From contig JAUYBG010000010.1 in the NCBI GenBank assembly GCA_030693205.1, positions 130,059 through 194,058 on the forward strand: a stretch of 64,000 nt of DNA, given 5' to 3'. A program made the translations under genes and the position numbers. The notes beneath the pieces were generated by a model. It worked only from the letters and a program-made list of their open reading frames with translations. It did not search any database and was not told the DNA's origin. Each line of letters starts with the position of its first letter. Positions within the stretch are counted from its first letter, which is position 1. Shown here piece by piece: positions 11,743-63,668 of this stretch. This DNA comes from a bacterium. Lineage in GTDB: Bacteria; Patescibacteriota; Minisyncoccia; JAHIHE01.

Positions 11743-11792
11743 AGTAATAAATACTTGTTAAATGATAAATTCAAAATTTTAAATTTTTCCTT

Positions 11793-13610
11793 TTACTTCG
11801 CTCCCATCTCTTTTTTGGCTCTTTCTATTTCCAATATCTGCTCGGGGTTGGAAGTGATAATTTGATCTTCGGAATATGAAGCGACCACCTTGATCGCGGC
11901 GTGTTTTGTTCCGGCAAAAAATATTCCTTCCCCCACATTGCTTTCCAGCAATAAGAATTTTTCTTCATCCGTCAAATAAAAAGTTTCCTTGATCATATCG
12001 ATGGCGGCCGGGGATTGCCGCATCAGAAGCTGAAGCGAAGAATTGGTCACGATCGGTTTGCCGTATCGCGAGCTCAAAAAATCAGTAATATCCTGGGTAA
12101 TGGTGGTAAGCCCCATATAATATTTTCTGCATCGCTTGGCGATGGCGTACATAAAAGCGGCGGCTTCTTCGTTTTGCATCATAACCCAAGCTTCATCAAC
12201 CACTAAAATCCTCTTTTTCAACTGTCCCCTGATCAGCGTCCAAATATAGTGCAAAATAATATACATCGCCACCGGACGCAATTGCTCTTCCATATCGCGG
12301 ATATTGAATACGACGAAACTTTTGTTTATTTTTATATTCGTCGGCTGATTGACAAATCCGCTAAAAGTCCCTTCCGTGAATTTTTTCAACCGCACAGAAA
12401 GAGATTCCGCTCCCTGCATATTGGCAAGAATTTCCCCCAGATCGCTCATAGTCGGAGGAATAGCTGTGGCAAAATCGGAGGTTGGAGTAATATCTTTTAT
12501 CGCGTAAGTTTCGCTGATGGCGCGATCCAAAATCGCATCCTCCTCGGGCGTCAGGGCGCCGAACATTACCTTCAGCAATCCCGATATATGAATAATGTTT
12601 GTTTTTAAAACATCGGCGGGAGATTCGTCTTCCAGAGGAACAGGCAGGTCAAAAGGATTAATATGATGATCGCTGGTCAAAGAAATCCGCAAAAATGCCC
12701 CGTTAACGGTTTCCGCCAAATACTTGTATTCATTTTCCGGATCGATCACCAACACATCAATACCGAACATCAAAGTCCTTAAAATTTCAAGTTTGATCGC
12801 GTAGCTCTTACCGGCGCCGGATTTGGCGAACACCACCATATTGGCGTTTTCCATCGAGAACCGGTCAAAAAGAATCAAGCTGTTGTTATGCCGATTTATG
12901 CCATAAAGAATGCCTCTGTTTGAAGTCACATCGCTCGACACAAAAGGAAAGATCGTCGAAAGCGGGCTGGTATTCATATTGCTGCCGATGGACAATTTGT
13001 CCTGGGCTAAAGGTATCGTGGAAGCAAAAGCGTCTTCCATCTGGAAAACCGCTGGTTTCGCGTAAACCAGTTGCGCCTCAAACATTCCTTCCACCTCGCG
13101 CCCCATTTTATCCAATTCTTCTTTGGTATCCGCGTAAAAAGTGATATAAATCCCCAGCCGGAAAAATTTTTCCGATCCTTGCTGTAAATTATCGCGGAGG
13201 CTCTCCGCGTCCGCCAAAGCGGTTTCCAGCATCGGATCGCGGACTTTTCCCGCTTCTTCTTCCATCCTGATACGGGATGTGACCTGAGTGACGACTTTCA
13301 AAAGACTTTTTAAAACCGTAACGCTATCCACCGGATGGATGAAAAGCGCGACATCGAAGGTAATATCATAATTTATCACGGGTGAAAACCAATTCGTCTG
13401 CAAATACCGCGGATAAGTATGGATAAAATAAGTGGCGGCCATTTTCTTGCCGATAATCAGATAATCCGACATGATCTTGTATGCTGACGGGGCGATCAGA
13501 TCTTTCACGGTTGATACTCCGCGCTGATAGTTTTTTTCCTGTTCCATCAGATCCTTGATCGCAAGGTCTTGAGACGCCGGTTTTTTAAAAATTTTGTCGA
13601 GAAATGACAT
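11793..13610 (-). CDS. VirB4/TrbE/CagE-family conjugal ATPase (Gram-positive-type, ~600 aa)
   Basis: Walker A FAKSGAGKSY, Walker B VLVIDPENEY. The N-terminal domain resembles the VirB4 N-domain. Confidence 0.8.
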   Translation of the reverse strand: MSFLDKIFKKPASQDLAIKDLMEQEKNYQRGVSTVKDLIAPSAYKIMSDYLIIGKKMAATYFIHTYPRYLQTNWFSPVINYDITFDVALFIHPVDSVTVLKSLLKVVTQVTSRIRMEEEAGKVRDPMLETALADAESLRDNLQQGSEKFFRLGIYITFYADTKEELDKMGREVEGMFEAQLVYAKPAVFQMEDAFASTIPLAQDKLSIGSNMNTSPLSTIFPFVSSDVTSNRGILYGINRHNNSLILFDRFSMENANMVVFAKSGAGKSYAIKLEILRTLMFGIDVLVIDPENEYKYLAETVNGAFLRISLTSDHHINPFDLPVPLEDESPADVLKTNIIHISGLLKVMFGALTPEEDAILDRAISETYAIKDITPTSDFATAIPPTMSDLGEILANMQGAESLSVRLKKFTEGTFSGFVNQPTNIKINKSFVVFNIRDMEEQLRPVAMYIILHYIWTLIRGQLKKRILVVDEAWVMMQNEEAAAFMYAIAKRCRKYYMGLTTITQDITDFLSSRYGKPIVTNSSLQLLMRQSPAAIDMIKETFYLTDEEKFLLLESNVGEGIFFAGTKHAAIKVVASYSEDQIITSNPEQILEIERAKKEMGAK

Positions 13611-14352: not shown

Positions 14353-14545
14353 GGTGTTTTTTTATAATATATTATTTCTGTACATTAAAAACTTTGTTTT
14401 TTAATGTTCGATTTTTTTAAATATCGGATATTTTAATAATTTTTAATTTCGAATTCTGAATTTCGAATCAAATTCGAATTTATTAATTTTGAAACATTCA
14501 ATCATTCAAAATTCACTCAAAATTCAAAATTGGAAATTCAAAATT

Positions 14546-14983
14546 TTAAACTGATTCCCTTTCTCCTTCCGCCGCTATTGCTTGCTGAGTATCCAGCATC
14601 CACGCCAGTTCCTGGAGCCGATTGCGGGAAATAATTTTATACTCCGCGCTTATATTCTCTTTAAGCGCCTCTTTTTTGATTCCGCGTTTGATCAAAATTC
14701 CTTCCGGTTCTCTTCGCCAAATATATAATTTCGGCTTGAAATTGTAAGTAAAATAATTGGCGATCAAAACATACAACGGCCGGCCATTGGGTTTGTAGAA
14801 GGCAAATAAAATGGCGGCAATAATGGTCGGCAGAGCTATCAATACGGCGATAAAAGCGACGAATATCAGCGAGGACATAAAAATAATCATCGCGCCCAAT
14901 CCAAGAATGACAGTCTGCTTGACTGTCAGCGGTCCAACTACCGTGTCTTCAACATCAATAAATTGCGGAACAGGATATTGCAT
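14546..14983 (-). CDS. PrgI/VirB3-like small membrane protein
   Basis: N-terminal MQYPVPQFIDVEDTVVGPLTVKQ followed by two TM helices. This is the PrgI-family pattern, and it sits upstream of VirB4 as in Gram-positive T4SS. Confidence 0.55.
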   Translation of the reverse strand: MQYPVPQFIDVEDTVVGPLTVKQTVILGLGAMIIFMSSLIFVAFIAVLIALPTIIAAILFAFYKPNGRPLYVLIANYFTYNFKPKLYIWRREPEGILIKRGIKKEALKENISAEYKIISRNRLQELAWMLDTQQAIAAEGERESV

Positions 14984-15091
14984 AGTTTTAAACGAAGTTT
15001 AAAATAAATTTTTAATTTCGAATTTTTAATTTCGAATGAATGACTTAATTTTGAAACATTAAAACATTCAAAATTCAAAATTGGAAATTTG

Positions 15092-15715
15092 TCATTCTAT
15101 TACGGGTTCTCTCTTCAGCCATTCATATAATTTCAACAGTTTTCTCAAAGTATCCGCCTGGCTGGTGTTCAAGCGCGCGCTAATCGCGTTTTTTTTCGCG
15201 TAATCGAGCCAGGTAAGGTCTTTCTGGGGCTCGGTGCCATGCGTTCTGTCATAATCCAAAAGCCAATTTTTTATTGTTGGCATCTCGGGATTATTCGCGC
15301 CAGTGACAAATATTTTTCCTCCGCCGATCTGCTCATTGTTTTCATGCAGCGCTTCCATAATCGGCTGATTGACCATTTCAAGCCTTGTTTCTCTGGGAAA
15401 TAATAATTGCCGAGTTTCAATTCTTTCCATTATATTTATTTCCTCTACATTTAGCGCGCCGACAAGAGATTCTTTTATAAATCTAGTCATTTCAGTATCT
15501 TTCAAAAAAGGCAATCTTACCAGTTTTAAACAAATCAACAAATTAGAATATTCTTCTATTCCTTGCTCATTATTTTCTGGCAATTCTAACAATTTACTTA
15601 AATTAAAATTAACTTCTTCTGTAATCTCTTCCGCTGAGCTAATATCTAAATCATCAACCGCCTGCTTAACCTTTTGTTTAATTTGTTCAATTTTATTAGT
15701 TTCTTTTTGTTCCAT
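15092..15715 (-). CDS. Hypothetical acidic protein
   Basis: 207-aa ORF in the T4SS-like cluster. Confidence 0.4.
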   Translation of the reverse strand: MEQKETNKIEQIKQKVKQAVDDLDISSAEEITEEVNFNLSKLLELPENNEQGIEEYSNLLICLKLVRLPFLKDTEMTRFIKESLVGALNVEEINIMERIETRQLLFPRETRLEMVNQPIMEALHENNEQIGGGKIFVTGANNPEMPTIKNWLLDYDRTHGTEPQKDLTWLDYAKKNAISARLNTSQADTLRKLLKLYEWLKREPVIE

Positions 15716-21396: not shown

Positions 21397-21694
21397 AGTT
21401 TAAAATTTTCAATTTTCAAATCCCAAATCTCAATGAAATCACAATGAACTAATTTTCAAATTGAACATTTAATCATTGAAAATTCATTGTAAATTGGTAC
21501 TTGGTGCTTGAAAATTACAAAAAATCAATTTATATTATTTTTACTAAAAGACTCATTAATTTACCATACGACGACATAACAATCTTATCCTCGATCAAGC
21601 CCTTGACTTTTCCCTTAATTTACCCTAACCTATCAATAATAGCAAGGAGAAAATCGTGAATCTTTGCACATTACAACATATAGGAGGTGAAATT

Positions 21695-22334: not shown

Positions 22335-22527
22335 CTAATTAGTTTCTGTTGAAATAGTCCTTGTTTTCTGTCATTCCGATTTGCCCGCAGGCGAAGAGGA
22401 ATCCCTTGGACATGTAAAATAGCAAGTATAAGCGATTTCTCTCCGCCCACTGGCGGATCGAAATGACAAATTTGTTTATTTTTGCCATAACAGAAAAAAT
22501 TATCACTATTTCAACAGGAACTAATTA
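22335..22527. mobile_element. MITE-like palindromic element with 24-bp terminal inverted repeats
   Basis: Left ctaattagtttctgttgaaatagt and right actatttcaacaggaactaattag (1 mismatch). Internal imperfect inverted repeats (tgtcattccgat / atcgaaatgaca). No ORF. Confidence 0.4.
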
Positions 22528-22528
22528 G

Positions 22529-22557
22529 ACACTGAAACAAGTTCAGCATGACAAAAA
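22529..22557 (-). repeat. Foldback hairpin repeat, copy 2 (inverted relative to 22166-22196)
   Basis: Reverse complement reads ttttgtcatgctgaacttgtttcagtgtc. Confidence 0.6.
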
Positions 22558-22578
22558 TTTAAAATAATTCAAATTTCA

Positions 22579-23623
22579 GGCTTAATAGTTAATTTGGGTG
22601 CCTAAAAACTTCAATTTATGGCATACTATAGATAAAAAGTTAATCTAATCTATAATTAATTTTAAATCTATAGTATGTCATTTAAAAAAAGTGTATATAT
22701 TGCGGCTGTTCCAAGGCAATTAAAAAGGGTAAAAGAAATGGAGTTTGGCGATATAAATGTTCTGTTTGTAACAAAAATTTTCAAAGCAAACGAAGAAAAT
22801 CCAGATTGCAGAATAAGCTTTGGAAAGAATATGTTTGCGGAAAACAAACCTTAAAAGATTTATCAGCCAAATATCATCGAGGTAAAAAATGGATAAATCG
22901 GCAATTAAATTCAGTAAAAATTTCTCCAAATGATTTGCCAAAACCTCAACCGATTGTAATCATCGCCGATGTCACTTTTTTTGAAAGAAGCTACGGAGTC
23001 GCGGTGATCAGAGAACCGAATTTAAAGAAAAATATTTATTGGAAAGAAGTATCAACAGAAACTCCGGAAATTTACTGGCAAGCCAGAACTCAAATCGAAC
23101 AGCTGGGTTTTATTCTAAAAGGAGCGGTAATCGACGGTAAAAGAGGCGTTAAAGAGGTGTTTTTGGATCTTCCGGTGCAGATGTGCCACTTCCATCAAAT
23201 AGCCATTATCAATCGATATTTAACCAGAAAACCAAAACTGGATGCGGGCAAGGAATTAAGAAAAATTACACTAACGCTAACCGATTCATCTGAAAAAAAA
23301 TTTACTGCCTTATTGGATAACTGGCATGAAAAATGGAAAGATTTTTTAAGAGAAAAATCATTCAATCCTGAAACTCAAAAATTGCATTACACTCACAAAA
23401 GATTAAGATCGGCCTTTCGAAGCTTAAAAACAAATCTGCTTTACCTTTTTACTTACCAAAAATATCCTGAATTAAAAATCCCAAATACTACCAATTCCTT
23501 AGACGGAACATTTTCCTATTTCAAAACTTTACTGAGAATTCATCGAGGAATGAACAAGACCAAAAGATACAAAGCAATATGCGAGATACTTAAAAATTAA
23601 GCACCCTAATTGACCATTAAACC
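22579..23623 (+). mobile_element. IS1-family insertion sequence, copy 1 (1045 bp) with 22-bp imperfect TIRs and an 8-bp TSD
   Basis: IRL ggcttaatagttaatttgggtg. IRR (reverse complement) ggtttaatggtcaattagggtg. Flanking direct duplication aaatttca on both sides. Second copy at 62623-63668. Confidence 0.75.
22686..23600 (+). CDS. IS1-family transposase (N-terminal CxxC...CxxC zinc finger fused to DDE domain); start ambiguous
   Basis: Frame is open from 22686. The zinc finger KKCIYCGCSK...RYKCSVCNKNFQ resembles IS1 InsA (CPxC...NGK...QRYxCxxCxxxFQ). No in-frame ATG/GTG, and the only TTG (22806) lies past the zinc finger. An ATG at 22675 sits in the +1 frame upstream of an A7 run (see findings). 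About 80% aa identity to the copy at 62647-63561. Confidence 0.7.
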   Translation, partial: KKCIYCGCSKAIKKGKRNGVWRYKCSVCNKNFQSKRRKSRLQNKLWKEYVCGKQTLKDLSAKYHRGKKWINRQLNSVKISPNDLPKPQPIVIIADVTFFERSYGVAVIREPNLKKNIYWKEVSTETPEIYWQARTQIEQLGFILKGAVIDGKRGVKEVFLDLPVQMCHFHQIAIINRYLTRKPKLDAGKELRKITLTLTDSSEKKFTALLDNWHEKWKDFLREKSFNPETQKLHYTHKRLRSAFRSLKTNLLYLFTYQKYPELKIPNTTNSLDGTFSYFKTLLRIHRGMNKTKRYKAICEILKN

Positions 23624-23657
23624 AAATTTCATGATTCATGCTTCATGATTCTATTTC

Positions 23658-25640
23658 CTAAAACCCTAACTCTTCCTCCACCCTCTCCATCAAATGATCC
23701 GGGATCTCGCGCAGGAAGCGCGACGGCGCGTTGGCCTGCATAATATCGCCCAGGTTCCGGCGCTGGCTAAGCAACAAATAAAGTTTTTCTTTGGCGCGGG
23801 TTATGCCGACATAGAGCAATCTCCGCTCTTCCTCGAGCTGGTTAATATCGGCGAGGCTTCTCGAGTGCGGCAAAATGCCTTCCTCGAGCCCGACAATAAA
23901 CACCACCTTGAACTCCAAACCTTTCGCCGAATGCAAGGTCATCAGATTGATCGCGTCATCGTGGATTTTGCGCCCTGTTTCTTCAAAAAGCGACGCTTCC
24001 GCCAAAAATTCCACCAAAGCTTCTTTCAAAGGCAGTTTGGCGTATTTTTTCGCCACCGCGATCAATTCTTTCAAGTTTTCTATTTTTTCCTCGCTCGAGG
24101 GCGAGGCAGCCGCCAAATATTTCGCGTAATCTATTTTTACTAAAATTTTCTTGATCGCTTTTTCCAAATTTAAGTCCTCGCTATTCTTGATCTCCGAGAT
24201 CAAACCGGCAAATTTTTTCACGCTCTCCGCAACTTTCGCGCCAAGCCCAAGCTCTTCCAGATCGGTTTTCTTAACCCAAGAGGTCAGATTTCCCCCGCTT
24301 TTCTCCAAACTCTTGAATATTATTTTCTCGCTTTTTTCGCCGATGCCGCGCGCCGGCACATTGATCACCCGCGCCAAGCTGACCAAATCGCTGGGATTCT
24401 GGATAATTTTCAAATACGACAAAATATCTTTTACTTCGCGCCGGGAATAAAATCTCACTCCGCCCACGATCCTGTATGGCAAAGCTTCGTTGATAAAAGA
24501 TTCTTCGATTATCCGCGACTGGGCATTAGTGCGATAAAAAACCGCGCAATCCCTGAAACTGATCTTTTCCTCTTTGGGTTTTTTAGCTGACTCGATGATC
24601 AGGCTTTGGATAGTCCGGGAAATAAAATTCGCCTCGCCTCTCGAGTCCGCAGCTTCATAAATAAAAAGCGGATGGCCTTCGATCTTCTGCGAATAGATCT
24701 TTTTGTCATGGCGCAAGACATTTTTTGAGATCAGCCCTTGAGCCGCGTCGAGTATGCGCTGGGTTGACCGGTAGTTCTCTTCCAGGAAGATCATCTTGGC
24801 TTCCGGCCAGTCTTTTTCAAAAGCCAGGATATTCCTGATATCCGCGCCCCGCCAGGAATAGATCCCCTGATCCGTATCGCCGACCACGCAAATATTCCTG
24901 TTCGCGCCGGCCAGCATCTTGATCAAAGTATATTGAGCCAGATTGGTGTCCTGATATTCGTCAACCATAATATGAAAAAATCTGTCCTGATATTTTTTTA
25001 AGATATCTTTGTTATCCTTAAAAAGCTCGTGGAGCTTGCAGATCAGATCGTCAAAATCCAAAGCATTATTTTTCTTGAGATTTTCCTGATAGCGCGCGTA
25101 GATCTTCGCCACCTGCTCCTGCCAAAGCCCGTGCGCCTGCTCCTGGAATTGTTTTTCGCCGATCAGCTCGTTTTTTGCCCCGGAAATCGCATATTTTATC
25201 GAAGTCGGACTGAATTGTTTGGGATTGATCTCGAGCGCCTCCATTGTCTTCTTGATCTGAGATATCGAATCGTCCTCGTCATAGATCACAAAATCCGATT
25301 TCATTCCCAGATGCTTGGCTTCCCGGCGCAAAACCATATTGCCGAATGAGTGGAATGTCCCGATTACGGGCATGCTGTCTTGAGCGTCTTCATTTTTTCC
25401 GCCACTAAGCAATTTCCTAAGCCGGATCCTCATTTCTTCCGCCGCCTTATTGGTAAAAGTCACTCCCAGAATTTGATCCGGATTTATATGCTGCTCTTTT
25501 ATAAGATAAGCAACCCGGTGGGTCAAAACCCGGGTTTTACCCGAACCCGGACCGGCCACGATCAAAAGAGGTCCGCTTGGGTGCGTCACCGCCTCGCGCT
25601 GTTTTTCGTTCAAGCCTTCCAAGATATCTGAAATTGGCAT
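23658..25640 (-). CDS. uvrD: UvrD/PcrA/Rep-family ATP-dependent DNA helicase
   Basis: Walker A AGPGSGKTRVLTHR, DEYQDTN (motif II), VGDTDQGIYSWRGA, and the rest of the motif set through VI. 660 aa. Confidence 0.85.
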   Translation of the reverse strand: MPISDILEGLNEKQREAVTHPSGPLLIVAGPGSGKTRVLTHRVAYLIKEQHINPDQILGVTFTNKAAEEMRIRLRKLLSGGKNEDAQDSMPVIGTFHSFGNMVLRREAKHLGMKSDFVIYDEDDSISQIKKTMEALEINPKQFSPTSIKYAISGAKNELIGEKQFQEQAHGLWQEQVAKIYARYQENLKKNNALDFDDLICKLHELFKDNKDILKKYQDRFFHIMVDEYQDTNLAQYTLIKMLAGANRNICVVGDTDQGIYSWRGADIRNILAFEKDWPEAKMIFLEENYRSTQRILDAAQGLISKNVLRHDKKIYSQKIEGHPLFIYEAADSRGEANFISRTIQSLIIESAKKPKEEKISFRDCAVFYRTNAQSRIIEESFINEALPYRIVGGVRFYSRREVKDILSYLKIIQNPSDLVSLARVINVPARGIGEKSEKIIFKSLEKSGGNLTSWVKKTDLEELGLGAKVAESVKKFAGLISEIKNSEDLNLEKAIKKILVKIDYAKYLAAASPSSEEKIENLKELIAVAKKYAKLPLKEALVEFLAEASLFEETGRKIHDDAINLMTLHSAKGLEFKVVFIVGLEEGILPHSRSLADINQLEEERRLLYVGITRAKEKLYLLLSQRRNLGDIMQANAPSRFLREIPDHLMERVEEELGF

Positions 25641-27474: not shown

Positions 27475-29343
27475 CTAGTTTTGCCATTTATTCATCAGCG
27501 GGTATCTGTCTCTGCTGCTGCCTCCGGGTATTGGATATGGAGTATTGCCAATGCCGTCGCCATTCAAATCTATGCCTGTATAATCGCTGTAATAGTTGCC
27601 TACAGTGCCATTGTCCCATTGATTGCTGCTTGTGTCATAACCATTATAGCTATTGCTAACAAGATTATTTTGGTAAACTTTGTTGTAGATAGAAGCTTCC
27701 AAAACGATCCCATAGCTATTATTCGAGGCGCTGTTGCCATTCACTGTATTGTTGTTGCTGGAATACCATATATAAATACCGTTACGGTGGTTATTCGATA
27801 CATTGTTGTCAATCAATGTGTTGTTGCTGGAAGAATACAGAAAGATACCGTCAACATTGTTTGAACTGACATTATTACCGATCAATGTATTGTTATTGTT
27901 TCCGCCTTCCATCAGAATGCCGTGGGCATTGTTTGAACTAACATTATTGCCAATCAGCATATTATTGCTGGAATACGCCATATAGATACCAAAATGATTA
28001 TTCGGGCCGGCATTGTTGCCAAAGAGCGTATTGTTGTTTGAAACAATCCAAATTCCTGCTCCTGAAGAGCTGGTATTAGTCGCGGTAAATCCTTCAAGAG
28101 TGATTCCGTCCGCGGAAAGCGTGATCGCACTTCCACTGCTATGGGCATCTACGACAGGATTTCCAATTCCCTTCAATGTTAACTGCTTATTTACATTCAC
28201 GTTTTCATAATACGTGCCGCTGTAAACATCAATCTCATCTCCCGTGTTCGCATCATTGATGGCTGCCTGAATACTTGCGTAGTCAGTATTTTTATTGACA
28301 TTATGCACAGGTCCGGTGGGTGCTGGTGTGGGCGTTGGTGTCGGGGTCGGTGTTGGAGGCGGTGCTGGCGCGCTGATGGTGAAATATCCATCGCTGGTAT
28401 CGGTACGTTTTGAGTTTTCCATACTCGTAACAATTACCTTGTAGTCTGTTCCTGTCTCATGGGTGGCAGGAATAGTCCAAAGATACGAACCATCGCCGTT
28501 ATAGTCTGTTGGGACAAATATAGCAATGAGTTCGGTTAACAAGGGAGAAGAACCTTTTTGAAGTTCAATTTTTACTGATGTTGTCTGCTTTCCTGTATAC
28601 TTCCACTGGATCTTTTGCTCGCTTTCAACCGGCCAGTTTTCTCCGCCGTTGGGAGAGAGAACTACAATCTTTTGTTTTGGCGGGATTGGAGGTGTTTTTG
28701 GCATTACCACAACAACAGAACCACCAGCACGTCTGGCATTACAATTTTCTGCACTTTTGCAAGTCATGGCATCCCAAAACTCGCTATTAAGATAATATTT
28801 ACTACTGCCCTTAGATGTTCCTGGATCATTAACTATTATATGAGTGGCATTATATCCCGTTACTACGACAAAATGCCCATCTGCATAATTATATCCTCTG
28901 TTTGAAAGATATTTTGCTGTTATAGATACAATAATAGGATGACCACTATCAATTTCTTGTTTAATCTTGTCTATTGTCCATCCTTTGTCTTGGTAACTAT
29001 CCGTGAATCCTCCATATTCTTTAGCTAAAACTTCTAGTATTGAGGTAGTTGTAGCTGCCCCATTGTAGTTGTTTATTGGCTGTTTTTTGCCATATGTTTT
29101 ATTAAGCCAATCGTCTATATCTTTAATTCCCTGTTCGGTTGGAATAGTGCCATTATAATATGAGAACACCATCAACGAGGAAGTTTGTCCGCAGTTTTGA
29201 GTTCCTGTTGTTCCTGGTGGAACTTGTGCTTTAAATAGCACTTCAAGTGGATTACTATACGCCGCTCCTACCATAGAAAGCAGTATTAATACAGTTATGG
29301 CATAAGCCAATATTCCTATTCTTTTTCTAATCAATTCTTTCAT
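27475..29343 (-). CDS. Large secreted protein: N-terminal papain-like (C39-like) peptidase domain, Pro/Thr linker, C-terminal right-handed beta-helix repeats
   Basis: Signal anchor. NCGQTSSLMV...GHFVVVTGYN Cys/His pair. (PT)n linker. About 9 NNTLIGNNVSSNN-type parallel beta-helix repeats. Confidence 0.6.
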   Translation of the reverse strand: MKELIRKRIGILAYAITVLILLSMVGAAYSNPLEVLFKAQVPPGTTGTQNCGQTSSLMVFSYYNGTIPTEQGIKDIDDWLNKTYGKKQPINNYNGAATTTSILEVLAKEYGGFTDSYQDKGWTIDKIKQEIDSGHPIIVSITAKYLSNRGYNYADGHFVVVTGYNATHIIVNDPGTSKGSSKYYLNSEFWDAMTCKSAENCNARRAGGSVVVVMPKTPPIPPKQKIVVLSPNGGENWPVESEQKIQWKYTGKQTTSVKIELQKGSSPLLTELIAIFVPTDYNGDGSYLWTIPATHETGTDYKVIVTSMENSKRTDTSDGYFTISAPAPPPTPTPTPTPTPAPTGPVHNVNKNTDYASIQAAINDANTGDEIDVYSGTYYENVNVNKQLTLKGIGNPVVDAHSSGSAITLSADGITLEGFTATNTSSSGAGIWIVSNNNTLFGNNAGPNNHFGIYMAYSSNNMLIGNNVSSNNAHGILMEGGNNNNTLIGNNVSSNNVDGIFLYSSSNNTLIDNNVSNNHRNGIYIWYSSNNNTVNGNSASNNSYGIVLEASIYNKVYQNNLVSNSYNGYDTSSNQWDNGTVGNYYSDYTGIDLNGDGIGNTPYPIPGGSSRDRYPLMNKWQN

Positions 29344-29564
29344 CTTTTATCACCTTTTTCTTATATTGTCTTTTGTTCGTCTGTCGATACCATCGGAATC
29401 TATTAGATTCGTCATTTTTTGTTTCTTGATTGTAGGGTACATTTTCCTCTTTTTATCACTTTTTACTCTTCAATTTAGTGATAATGAATATCGTACCACA
29501 ATTTTCTGTAATGTCAAGCAAAAGACAGATGTTACTAAGTTGATAGTGTTTAAAATCCACAAAT

Positions 29565-50869: not shown

Positions 50870-51102
50870 TTTAAATTATTGCGGACTAGTGTTGCTTAAT
50901 CCTTTATTAGAAACATTATTGGCCTTCCTGTGTTTAAGCTTAATTGAACCAATAAAAAAACAGCTTTTAAAAGCCTGTTATGCAACTATCAAGTATAGCA
51001 TATTATAGATTTTTGTCAAGAAGAAATAGGCATACACAAGGAAGGTAAAACTCAACAAAAAAGCAAAATTAAAAGGAGCTTAAAGCTCCTTTTAATTCAT
51101 AT

Positions 51103-51285
51103 TTAGTGGACCTAGACAGAATCGAACTGTCGTCTCCGCAATGCGAATGCGGCGTCTTACCACTGGACTATAGGCCCAAATCCGCTGAAAGCGGATTAAC
51201 CACATAACCAATAACCATAACTAATAACAATTTGGTTATCGGTTATAAGTTATCGATTATTAGTTATTTTGGTCGCAATTGCTGA
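51103..51285. repeat. Direct repeat A (~183 bp) containing tRNA-Ala and its 5' spacer hairpin; left boundary of the island
   Basis: About 97% identical to 59059-59236, with 4-5 differences that are partly compensatory within the spacer palindrome. Confidence 0.85.
51107..51177 (-). tRNA. tRNA-Ala (CGC), copy A
   Basis: Acceptor GGGCCTA with G3:U70, anticodon loop TTCGCAT, T-loop TTCGATT. No encoded CCA. Confidence 0.85.
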
Positions 51286-58771: not shown

Positions 58772-59058
58772 ACTCTTATTTAATTAAATCATTAACACCG
58801 ACCTCAAGCGCTTTGGCGATTTTGGTCAGCGTTTCGATTGTTGGGTTCTGATTAACACCATTTTCAATTTTTACGATAGTATTGATCGATAAATCAGCAA
58901 GACGAGTTTTTATTGCTTTAATATTGTAATAATAGCTAATTTTAACGATTTTGTAAATAAAAATAGACCGTCTTGTGAACGGCTATCTTGAAAGAGATAA
59001 ATCTCGCTTGCAAAGGAGAGAGTAAGGAATGAGCCTCCGAACGAGGCTTTAAATCAAT

Positions 59059-59236
59059 TTTAGTGGACCTAGACAGAATCGAACTGTCGTCTCCGCAATG
59101 CGAATGCGGCGTCTTACCACTGGACTATAGGCCCAAATCCGCTGAAAGCGGATTAACCACATAACCAATAACTCATAACTAATAACAATTTGATTATCGG
59201 TTATGAGTTATCGATTATTAGTTATTTTGGTCGGGG
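59059..59236. repeat. Direct repeat B containing tRNA-Ala copy B and the spacer hairpin, abutting the tRNA-Pro 3' end
   Basis: See 51103-51285. Confidence 0.85.
59064..59134 (-). tRNA. tRNA-Ala (CGC), copy B (identical to copy A)
   Basis: Same sequence as 51107-51177. Confidence 0.85.
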
Positions 59237-62622: not shown

Positions 62623-63668
62623 AGGTTTAATAGTAAATTTGTGAGGCTATTTCTTAAGTATTTCACATATCATCTTGTATCTTTTAGCTCTACTCATTCC
62701 TCGATGAATTCTCAACAAGGTTTTGAAATAGGAAAATGTTCCGTCTAAAGAATTGGTAGTATTGGGGATTTTTAATTTAGGATATTTCTGGTAAGTAAAA
62801 AGATAAGGCAAGTTTGTTTTTAAACTTCGATAGGCTGATCTTAATCTTTTGTGAGTGAAATATAGTCTTTGAGTTTCAGGATTGAATGATTTTTCTTGCA
62901 AAAAATCTTTCCATTTTTCATGCCACTTATTCAGTAATTCAGTAAATTCTTTTTCATTTGAAGTAGTCAATGATAAAGCAATGCTTCTTAACTCTTTACC
63001 TGCATCCAGTTTTGGTTTTCTGGTTAAATACCGATTGATAATAGCCACCTGATGAAATTGGCACATCTGCACAGGAAGATCCAGAAATACCTCTTTAACC
63101 CCTCTTTTACCGTCAATTACCACTCCTTTTAGAGTAAATCCTTGCTGTTCAATCTGAGTTCTTGCTTTCCAATAAATATCCGGAGTTTCAGTTGATACTT
63201 CTTTCCAATAAATATTTTTCTTTAAATTCGGTTCTCTAATTGCCACAACTCCATAGCTTCTTTCAAAAAAAGTAACATCGGCAATGATTACAACCGGTTG
63301 AGGATTTGGTAAATTATTAGGAGAAATTTTAACTGAATTTAATTGCTGGTTTATCCATTTCTTGCTTCTGTGATATTTTTCTGATAAATCTTTTAGAGTT
63401 TGTTTTTTACAAATATATTCTTTCCAAAGTTTATTTTGTAATCGGATTTTTCTTCGCTTGCTTTGAAATTGCAATCCGCATTTTGTGCATTTATATCGCT
63501 GTACCAGTCGAAATTTTCCATTCTTTTTTACATAACCGTTGCCGCATTTTGGACACTTTTTTTAAATGACATACTATAGATTTAAAATTAATTGTAAATT
63601 AAGTTAACTTTTAATCTACAGTATGCCATAAATTGAAGTTTTTAGCATCACAGATTTACTATTAAGCC
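62623..63668 (-). mobile_element. IS1-family insertion sequence, copy 2 (1046 bp, diverged)
   Basis: TIRs ggtttaatagtaaatttgtgagg (62623-62645) and cacagatttactattaagcc (63649-63668). No clear TSD. Confidence 0.75.
62647..63561 (-). CDS. IS1-family transposase, copy 2; start ambiguous
   Basis: Zinc finger KKCPKCGNGYVKKNGKFRLVQRYKCTKCG plus DDE region. Same AUG plus A7 arrangement (ATG at 63572..63570, A7 at 63563..63557) with the ORF in the -1 frame. Confidence 0.7.
   Translation of the reverse strand, partial: KKCPKCGNGYVKKNGKFRLVQRYKCTKCGLQFQSKRRKIRLQNKLWKEYICKKQTLKDLSEKYHRSKKWINQQLNSVKISPNNLPNPQPVVIIADVTFFERSYGVVAIREPNLKKNIYWKEVSTETPDIYWKARTQIEQQGFTLKGVVIDGKRGVKEVFLDLPVQMCQFHQVAIINRYLTRKPKLDAGKELRSIALSLTTSNEKEFTELLNKWHEKWKDFLQEKSFNPETQRLYFTHKRLRSAYRSLKTNLPYLFTYQKYPKLKIPNTTNSLDGTFSYFKTLLRIHRGMSRAKRYKMICEILKK

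Follow-up and report, generated by a model that had tools for sequence, protein, structure and literature searches.

A 64,000-nucleotide (nt) stretch of a Patescibacteriota contig (JAUYBG010000010.1, positions 130,059 to 194,058; hereafter the window) carries two copies of a small insertion sequence (IS) whose transposase open reading frame (ORF) is out of frame with the ATG that precedes it, with a run of seven A's (A7) at the junction. In none of 130 relatives is the ATG in frame. Judged from their sequences and those of the two copies, standard decoding cannot yield the full-length protein, and selection keeps both the protein and its out-of-frame start. We lean, with moderate confidence, towards an obligatory, programmed frame correction at the A-run within the first 2-6 codons, brought about mainly by slippage of RNA polymerase.

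In copy 1, ATG, TCATTT, A7 and G follow one another, and the ATG frame reads ATG TCA TTT AAA AAA AGT G from 22675. The 19-mer atgtcatttaaaaaaagtg is common to both copies with no differences, and the start-region string spanning the A7 of the window element is ATGTCATTTAAAAAAAGTG. The transposase frame of copy 1 is open from 22686, directly after a TAA at 22683-22685, and closes with the stop at 23598-23600. Its earliest canonical in-frame start, a TTG at 22806, is codon 41 and lies past both CxxC knuckles of the zinc finger. The public annotation of copy 2 covers residues 31-305 only, from an internal TTG start, as a 275-amino-acid (aa) "hypothetical protein" (Q8N37_02855, identical to P0006 of our set). 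The out-of-frame ATG and A7 that the initial annotation of the window had described for both copies were confirmed, as was its remark that the ATG-frame reading is not conserved, the lengths of this ORF being 59 aa (copy 1) and 14 aa (copy 2). Its placement of the slip on A AAA AAG held in part: the string is present, at 22685-22691, but is phased in the transposase frame, not in the ATG frame, where the codons TTT AAA AAA AGT give the zero-frame motif T_AAA_AAA. On this motif, A-site re-pairing is perfect and P-site re-pairing is imperfect. Elsewhere in the copy 1 transposase ORF there are further in-frame T7 (22976-22982) and A8 (23293-23300) runs, at which a slippage-prone polymerase would also spoil some full-length messages.

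A protein search returned 3557 related protein clusters at E <= 0.001. Nearly all of the called relatives begin within or beyond the first zinc knuckle, indicating that gene callers cannot find a start. We retrieved 80 genomic and 80 metagenomic loci, with identities of 41-87%, and analysed their 5' ends mechanically; they span more than 10 phyla and include finished isolate replicons. These gave 142 distinct contexts, and in 130 of them an ATG is followed by 0-9 nt (mostly 3, 5 or 6) and then by a pure A-run before the first cysteine of the finger (Cys1). Several of the others have GTG or TTG at the equivalent place; in several more, the script had taken the second CxxC, with the first knuckle missing or beyond the contig. 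The run is A7 in 87 relatives (67%), A6 in 26 (20%) and A8 in 13 (10%), so that 126 of the 130 have 6-8 A's, and a few have only A5. It is thus at least 7 in the window copies and in 77% of relatives, and shorter in the A6 and A5 members. That the junction run is pure A in all 130 loci, down to 41% protein identity, argues for constraint at the nucleotide level.

The distance from the ATG to Cys1, modulo 3, was 2 in 68 of these loci (requiring a -1 correction), 1 in 62 (requiring +1) and 0 in none. The complete lack of in-frame ATGs among 130 loci is far beyond chance. On a neighbour-joining tree of 122 transposases, the -1 and +1 classes have changed into each other at least 19 times, never passing to the in-frame state. 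AAA and AAG are the sole codons between the in-frame stop and Cys1 in the layout seen most often. A T precedes the A-run in 81% of loci, and the zero-frame peptides, with a median length of 14-15 aa, have only M-x(0-3)-K-K in common. The ATG and A-run, spaced by 0-9 nt, thus recur in the other family members in which the initial annotation had proposed to look for them. It had also named plain in-frame ATGs and additional disruptions as observations that would count against a recoded start; we found no clade member in frame (0 of 130), and the ORF is intact in 122 of the 128 copies that are complete. Together these counts give strong support to its idea of an out-of-frame AUG followed by a slip in the A-run that throttles expression at the very start. 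As a general rule, the -1 direction that it had assumed did not survive, because 62 of the 130 relatives need +1, that is, one A fewer.

Several observations indicate that the protein downstream of the junction is intact and under selection. The C2C2 finger is complete in 120 of 122 relatives, with a spacer of 18 residues in 106. Over 20 close pairs, the ratio of nonsynonymous to synonymous change (pN/pS) in the zinc-finger segment was 0.30. The segment, which has no start of its own, is therefore under purifying selection and must be translated. After Cys1, the first in-frame start falls anywhere from codon 2 to 163 and is not conserved in position. A homopolymer sequencing artefact was considered and rejected: about 100 of the 119 runs in the window (at least 7 for A/T, at least 6 for G/C) sit within intact long ORFs, and about 130 independent assemblies, along with finished replicons of isolates, show the same layout.

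The elements also appear to be mobile with the frame junction in place. A Syntrophorhabdus metagenome-assembled genome holds three copies, on contigs of 439-768 kb and each in different flanks; two of them, L019 and L020, show no difference over 1034 bp (100% identity), and the third copy has 99.5% identity. Loci L150 and L153 have an identical 1036-bp core in differing flanks, and the cluster L150-L154, at 99% identity or more, has one A8 start context in common. Run length is constant within all 13 clusters of copies that are at least 95% identical (31 members). Judged by such near-identical sets, recently transposed copies retain the frameshift, and active elements carry it. The finished genome of Nitratifractor salsuginis DSM 16511 has the same layout, with A6 and in the +1 class (ATGGCTTGTAAAAAAGTGCCC), and its deposited protein, Nitsa_0013, matches the translation only if one nucleotide of A6G is skipped. 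Complete Aliarcobacter plasmids have the out-of-frame layout as well. At the start region ATGTCTGTAAAAAAATAG... of pACIB from A. cibarius H743, which has A7 and belongs to the +1 class, the Prokaryotic Genome Annotation Pipeline (PGAP) calls just a 208-aa fragment. The zero frame at this locus (L170; NZ_CP043858.1, ~195343-195370) reads ATG TCT GTA AAA AAA TAG, with the stop directly after two Lys codons, a prfB-like configuration that is found at three places in the plasmid.

A few relatives seemed to have an in-frame start. In P0043/L163, "MLWCIKKC" is a code-4 call that reads TGA as W; in P0112/L161, the TTG results from a T-to-C change that removes the TAA; and in P0126/L164, the GTG lies 4 nt after the out-of-frame ATG. 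All three retain the ATG + A7 arrangement. P0034 and P0057 have frames that are open upstream, with the out-of-frame ATG still inside. The sole true in-frame ATGs belong to a remote sister subfamily, ~38% identical to the window protein, in which the leader is MTK(K/R)(V/I)TR(K/R)AK(K/R)C (L167 and L166). Among 150 cluster representatives, in-frame proteins with the full finger occur only at 45% identity or less, and there are none among the 35 above that value. By this comparison, the out-of-frame start defines a large clade and not the whole superfamily. Within the sister subfamily, the L166 ORF (288-1298) has two TGA codons that the gene caller rendered as Trp, pointing to either a host with genetic code 4 or 25 or a decaying copy. 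A relative with 39% identity on an mcr plasmid of Klebsiella pneumoniae (L169; NZ_CP071820.1, 118102-119040) has only A5; 5 nt ahead of its out-of-frame ATG is a TTG in the transposase frame, which PGAP takes as the start. A strong GC hairpin, AAACCCCACTCAAA / TTTGAGTGGGGTTT, stands directly upstream, and the element is present at two places in the record.

The start codon of copy 1 lies in the 3' arm of a 16-bp hairpin with a minimum free energy of -24.2 kcal/mol (z = -7.1). Over 14 members of the subfamily, the paired share of cells is 88.8%, whereas slid controls reach 22-47%. Compensatory changes are seen at six pairs, and the observed covariation was equalled in 0 of 500 shuffles. The predicted promoter within the loop matches the consensus at 10 of 12 positions, and TAnAAT and TAGAT are invariant or nearly so in the 14 relatives while the remainder of the loop varies. 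We infer that this is a resident promoter with a transcription start near 22663. A transcript from it would lack the 5' arm, which lies upstream of the predicted start, so the hairpin would form only in read-through transcripts. It therefore looks like an IS10/IS50-type guard against read-through from outside more than a stimulator of slippage. A stimulator role of the type described by Penno is not favoured, because the promoter lies within the loop and native transcripts should lack the 5' arm, and because the hairpin is missing from many subfamilies.

Other subfamilies have no such hairpin; they have instead a clear Shine-Dalgarno (SD) sequence, 8-12 nt before the out-of-frame ATG. SD-like 4-mers were counted at 31% of loci and at 15% of control ATGs (p = 7e-6), which supports the out-of-frame ATG as the initiation site. 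In SD-using subfamilies (L052, L053, L077 and L103), a small conserved hairpin, TTACA-(GGAG..)-TGTAA, has the SD in its loop and lies ~20 nt before the out-of-frame ATG. Structure is not enriched over the 60 nt that follow the run (mean z = -0.13; z < -2 in 3%; n = 130). Rfam gave no match within 22450-23700.

The initial annotation had assigned the element to the IS1 family. Here it was mistaken: with the NCBIfam IS1 model NF033558, the protein reaches 22.6 bits (cut-off 100), and the match extends over residues 7-49 only, the zinc ribbon. NF048019, "IS256 family transposase, variant Zn-binding type", matches the copy 1 transposase with 327.8 bits (cut-off 150; E = 6e-98), residues 9-307 aligning to profile positions 2-300 of 304. 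By this profile, both copies belong to the IS256-related Zn-binding variant clade. Likewise, the two-ORF layout of IS1 (insA and insB' joined mid-gene by a -1 shift) is absent; there is a single long ORF with its frame junction at codons 4-6, and the upstream ORF adds merely MSFKK to the transposase of the window copies. Pfam gave no domain above threshold in the transposase, Zn_ribbon_InsA being sub-threshold at E = 0.34. The canonical IS256 model of NCBIfam gives 28.8 bits against a cut-off of 150, and the family profile matches the solved IS256-family transposase of ISCth4 (6xg8) weakly, with E = 0.0044 over ~80 residues. IS256 transposases have their catalytic Glu in a TNxxES motif. In the protein alignment, the third acidic motif of our transposase is NTTNSLDG, with D in place of the E of IS256, and the clade transposase may therefore be a DDD variant, not DDE. 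Window positions 23490-23510 encode this motif, and the Asp of NSLDG is near-invariant in the clade (alignment columns ~297-305).

Elements of the IS256 family have terminal inverted repeats and an 8-9-bp target duplication, a pattern that the 27-nt repeats and 8-bp duplication of copy 1 fit. IS256 itself has one unbroken transposase ORF with an ordinary start, a feature that is not shared here, with an in-frame ATG before the zinc finger in none of the 130 clade members. Homology of copy 1 to copy 2 and to the relative L001 begins at the left inverted repeat. The 8-bp target duplication of copy 2 is degenerate (TAAAATTT / TAAAGTTG). The two copies are 83% identical as DNA over 1086 aligned positions and 82% identical as transposase proteins. 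The window copies are complete, probably active elements. Just upstream of copy 1 lies a 33-nt inverted repeat (22335-22367 / 22496-22528), 85% complementary with 128 nt between its arms.

In the mechanism that we favour, translation would begin at an AUG 0-9 nt (6 nt here) upstream of an A6-8 run, and only a minority of events, those that restore the frame within the run, would give the full zinc-finger transposase. RNA polymerase slippage would add one A in the -1 class, giving MSFKKKC... in the window, and would remove one A in the +1 class; P-site slippage of tRNA-Lys on AAA-AAA might contribute, chiefly in the -1 class. Unslipped events would give a short unconserved peptide and no regulator resembling InsA or OrfA. 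With no functional upstream product, the device would be a pure expression throttle. The hairpin would act as a second safeguard, hiding the AUG solely in transcripts that enter from outside. To our knowledge, transcriptional slippage is the one mechanism that yields +1-nt and -1-nt products at similar rates, and such symmetry would explain why the -1 and +1 classes are nearly equal in number and interconvert freely. The need for +1 in half of the relatives argues against a dedicated -1 ribosomal frameshift and for a bidirectional mechanism, for example transcriptional slippage. RNA polymerase is further favoured because the pure run is the sole conserved element. The slipping machine and the efficiency of slippage are, like the promoter and the transcription start, what we infer here.

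Several points weigh against slippage by RNA polymerase. The evidence for slippage is at the level of DNA sequence. One fifth of the members have A6 only and a few have A5, below the threshold of seven A's for IS1447, and a length of "8 nt or longer" is usually quoted for transcriptional realignment (PMC3711429). Many A7-A9 runs lie inside host genes, so slippage at A7 cannot be very efficient. In addition, the zero frame nearly always contains two full AAA codons, and T_AAA_AAA resembles C_AAA_AAA, a motif that shifts ribosomes efficiently; for the -1 class, to which the window copies belong, this makes a shift by the ribosome fully credible, with tRNA-Lys slippage a serious rival and a probable contributor. 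The correction could then be purely translational throughout, with peptidyl-tRNA-Lys slipping on AAA-AAA early in elongation, by -1 here and by +1 or -2 in the other class, and with possible help from a ribosome still tethered to the initiation SD. We regard this as possible but less likely. Near an initiation codon, C_AAA_AAA gave a 25-60% -1 shift in E. coli with the RNA unchanged (PMC1851650), and T_AAA_AAA, AAA_AAA_A and AAA_AAA_T are over-represented heptamers at conserved frame transitions (PMC3711429). Moreover, A6 would suffice for tRNA slippage and is marginal for the polymerase, which would accommodate 20% of the elements. In SD-using members, the SD falls ~12-17 nt upstream of the run, which in dnaX is the range that stimulates -1 shifting. 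The two AAA codons in ~127 of 130 zero frames point the same way, although the T ahead of the run accounts for this phase bias too, since the third phase would then give a zero-frame TAA. Against a translational shift, half of the family needs +1 (or -2), the A site mostly holds neither a slow codon nor a stop codon, and no stimulatory structure lies downstream. The direction is not fixed among homologues (68 need -1 and 62 need +1), and the classes have switched at least 19 times, whereas -1 and +1 ribosomal shifts differ greatly in their requirements and efficiencies, so that neutral switching this often would be difficult to account for.

Two further explanations would dispense with slippage during expression. 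The A-tract could be a contingency locus for phase variation at the DNA level, with most copies OFF and a rare ON allele that transposes. A change of 1 nt in the run would indeed switch the gene ON, and homopolymers in 5' coding regions are classic switches, such as the poly-A of M. fermentans p78 (cited in PMC3711429). Nevertheless, none of the 130 distinct elements is ON, run length does not vary within the 13 clusters of near-identical copies, and A6-A8 is short for a hypermutable tract. Fresh identical duplicates are all OFF, although they should be ON if only ON alleles transposed. We consider phase variation very improbable. Slightly less probable still is that nothing is recoded, the protein being made from an internal or non-canonical in-frame start, or the copies being decaying pseudogenes, with the ATG and A-run there incidentally, perhaps as the relic of a promoter or as an A-rich enhancer of translation. 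The internal TTG in the public annotation of copy 2 and the chance in-frame TTG or GTG beside the run in L161, L164 and the Klebsiella relative L169 would fit such a start. Yet the first in-frame starts after Cys1, from codon 2 to 163, are not conserved, the zinc finger ahead of them is under purifying selection, its C2C2 being complete in 120 of 122 relatives, and the most frequent layout has nothing but AAA and AAG from the in-frame stop to Cys1. Decay is contradicted by the intact ORFs, the inverted repeats, the perfect target duplication and the identical multicopy sets, and a chance arrangement predicts about one third of ATGs in frame, where we saw 0 of 130.

Recoding in IS elements is textbook knowledge for IS1, IS3 and IS630. 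In every described case that we know of, the shift joins two sizeable ORFs in one fixed direction. As read from the sequences, the clade is distinct in that the junction lies 2-6 codons in, nothing functional stands upstream, the direction is not fixed and the in-frame state was never observed. In a full-text search that left ISfinder uncovered, the literature on IS256 slippage or realignment, on frameshifts in insertion sequences of the candidate phyla radiation (CPR) and on the NCBIfam family name contained no description of this feature. It is a serious though tentative possibility that the arrangement, an obligatory early frame correction in either direction with selection for the wrong frame across a clade of more than 10 phyla, has gone unrecognised. 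If so, it would be a control of quantity with no upstream protein product, and it might make use of an RNA polymerase close to its promoter, ~20-28 nt from the predicted transcription start, or of a ribosome in early elongation that the SD still tethers. The pattern is a clean sign of selection against an unthrottled transposase. Homologues in cultured Aliarcobacter and Nitratifractor and on a Klebsiella plasmid offer a natural system in which to study how polymerase or ribosome keeps register in the first codons. For annotation, thousands of "hypothetical" or truncated proteins of the CPR and other groups would be mis-annotated full-length transposases; gene callers and PGAP shorten such genes or call them "hypothetical", copy 2 being an example.

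The coordinates of both copies are collected in the table. The window has other repeats besides. A direct repeat of ~185 bp (51091-51275 and 59048-59233; 97-98% identical, 8 kb apart) holds a duplicated tRNA-Ala(cgc), at 51106-51177 and 59063-59134 on the minus strand, together with 60 nt of flank. Tandem repeats of 69-72 nt at 27750-28035 lie within a 624-codon minus-strand ORF (27475-29346), which suggests that it encodes a repeat-containing protein. An AT-rich intergenic motif, AAATTCAAAATTT..., occurs between genes in direct and inverted orientation at 11767-11800, 14438-14567, 15007-15104 and 21397-21456.

Table. Features of the two insertion sequence copies in the window (positions in the window; hairpin and promoter assignments are predictions)
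Feature	Position	Strand	Basis or remark
IS copy 1, complete, 1045 bp	22579-23623	+	Inverted repeats and target duplication
Target-site duplication, left, copy 1, AAATTTCA	22571..22578	+	Same 8-mer at 23624-23631, outside the inverted repeats
Left terminal inverted repeat, copy 1, GGCTTAATAGTTAATTTGGGTGCCTAA	22579..22605	+	22/27 against the reverse complement of 23597-23623
Start-codon hairpin, 5' arm, copy 1, ATGGCATACTATAGAT	22618..22633	+	Pairs with the start-codon region; predicted transcription start lies downstream
Predicted promoter, copy 1: -35 TAGATA (22629-22634), 16-nt spacer, -10 TATAAT (22651-22656)	22629..22656	+	Within the hairpin loop
Start-codon hairpin, 3' arm with the ATG, copy 1, ATCTATAGTATGTCAT	22666..22681	+	Folding and covariation
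Start codon, copy 1, out of frame (-1 class)	22675..22677	+	Invariant in the subfamily alignment
Zero-frame ORF, copy 1, MSFKK..., 59 aa, putative unslipped product	22675..22854	+	Not conserved
A7 slippery run, copy 1, putative recoding site	22684..22690	+	A-run conserved among relatives
Transposase ORF, copy 1, 304 codons and stop	22686..23600	+	C2C2 zinc ribbon and putative IS256-type catalytic domain
Right terminal inverted repeat, copy 1	23597..23623	+	Overlaps the stop codon; reverse complement GGTTTAATGGTCAATTAGGGTGCTTAA
Target-site duplication, right, copy 1, AAATTTCA	23624..23631	+	Perfect 8-bp match to the left copy
IS copy 2, complete, 1045 bp	62624..63668	-	Inverted repeats at each end
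Transposase ORF, copy 2	62647..63561	-	Sequence
A7 run, copy 2	63557..63563	-	Sequence
Start-codon hairpin, copy 2	63566..63629	-	Arms 63629-63614 and 63581-63566; promoter-like TAGATT-16-TACAAT in the loop
Start codon, copy 2, out of frame (-1 class)	63570..63572	-	Sequence identical to copy 1

Several of the closest parallels come from other transposable elements. IS1447, an IS3-family element of Clostridium thermocellum, uses programmed transcriptional slippage on A9, for which A7 is sufficient; among cDNA clones from an A9 template, 8 of 52 had A10 and 9 of 52 had A8 (~16% each), and its relatives conserve the run at A7-A9 (PMC6211511). As in our clade, transposase expression hangs on a pure A-run, and transcripts with one nucleotide more and one fewer were both seen. 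However, the IS1447 run ends a functional OrfA and fuses it to OrfB, with one productive direction per subgroup, whereas the window clade has no OrfA, its run follows the AUG by 0-3 codons and both directions are interchangeable. IS1 is likewise a small element with an N-terminal zinc ribbon, in which a -1 ribosomal frameshift at A6C limits the InsAB' transposase. Both thus combine a zinc-ribbon DNA-binding N-terminus with an A-rich slippery site that restricts the transposase. IS1 differs in belonging to another family and in having a mid-gene shift, always -1, that joins two functional ORFs and leaves the InsA repressor. For the Roseiflexus IS630-family element, the work of Penno et al. (2015), as related in PMC5009743, describes a transposase made only from realigned transcripts and a hairpin directly 5' of the motif. 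In some subfamilies of our clade, a hairpin also ends 0-2 nt before the A-run. The Roseiflexus motif, however, is U5C5 and lies mid-gene, whereas the clade hairpin has its 5' arm upstream of the predicted promoter and is often absent.

Release factor 2 offers a parallel outside IS elements: expression of prfB in E. coli needs an obligatory +1 shift after a 26-codon zero-frame ORF whose product is useless (PMC5009743). The likeness lies in a useless short zero-frame ORF with the whole functional protein in another frame. Yet prfB has CUU-UGA, an SD 3 nt upstream and autoregulation by RF2, and its shift is always +1, whereas in the window clade the shift would follow 2-5 codons, at an A-run and in either direction, with no evident feedback loop. 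An accidental case is the C_AAA_AAA in the attB1 site of the vector pDEST17, which causes efficient -1 ribosomal frameshifting in E. coli with no stimulator (PMC1851650). There, AAA-AAA stands a few codons from initiation and resembles the zero-frame T_AAA_AAA of the window, but it is a vector artefact in E. coli and shifts only by -1. In IS10 and IS50, the translation start is hidden by pairing within an inverted repeat whose 5' half precedes the promoter of the element, and only transcripts that enter from outside therefore fold. The start-hiding hairpin of the window copies, with its 5' arm upstream of the predicted promoter, would work in the same way, except that it is found in some subfamilies only and that the clade would add to it an obligatory frame correction.

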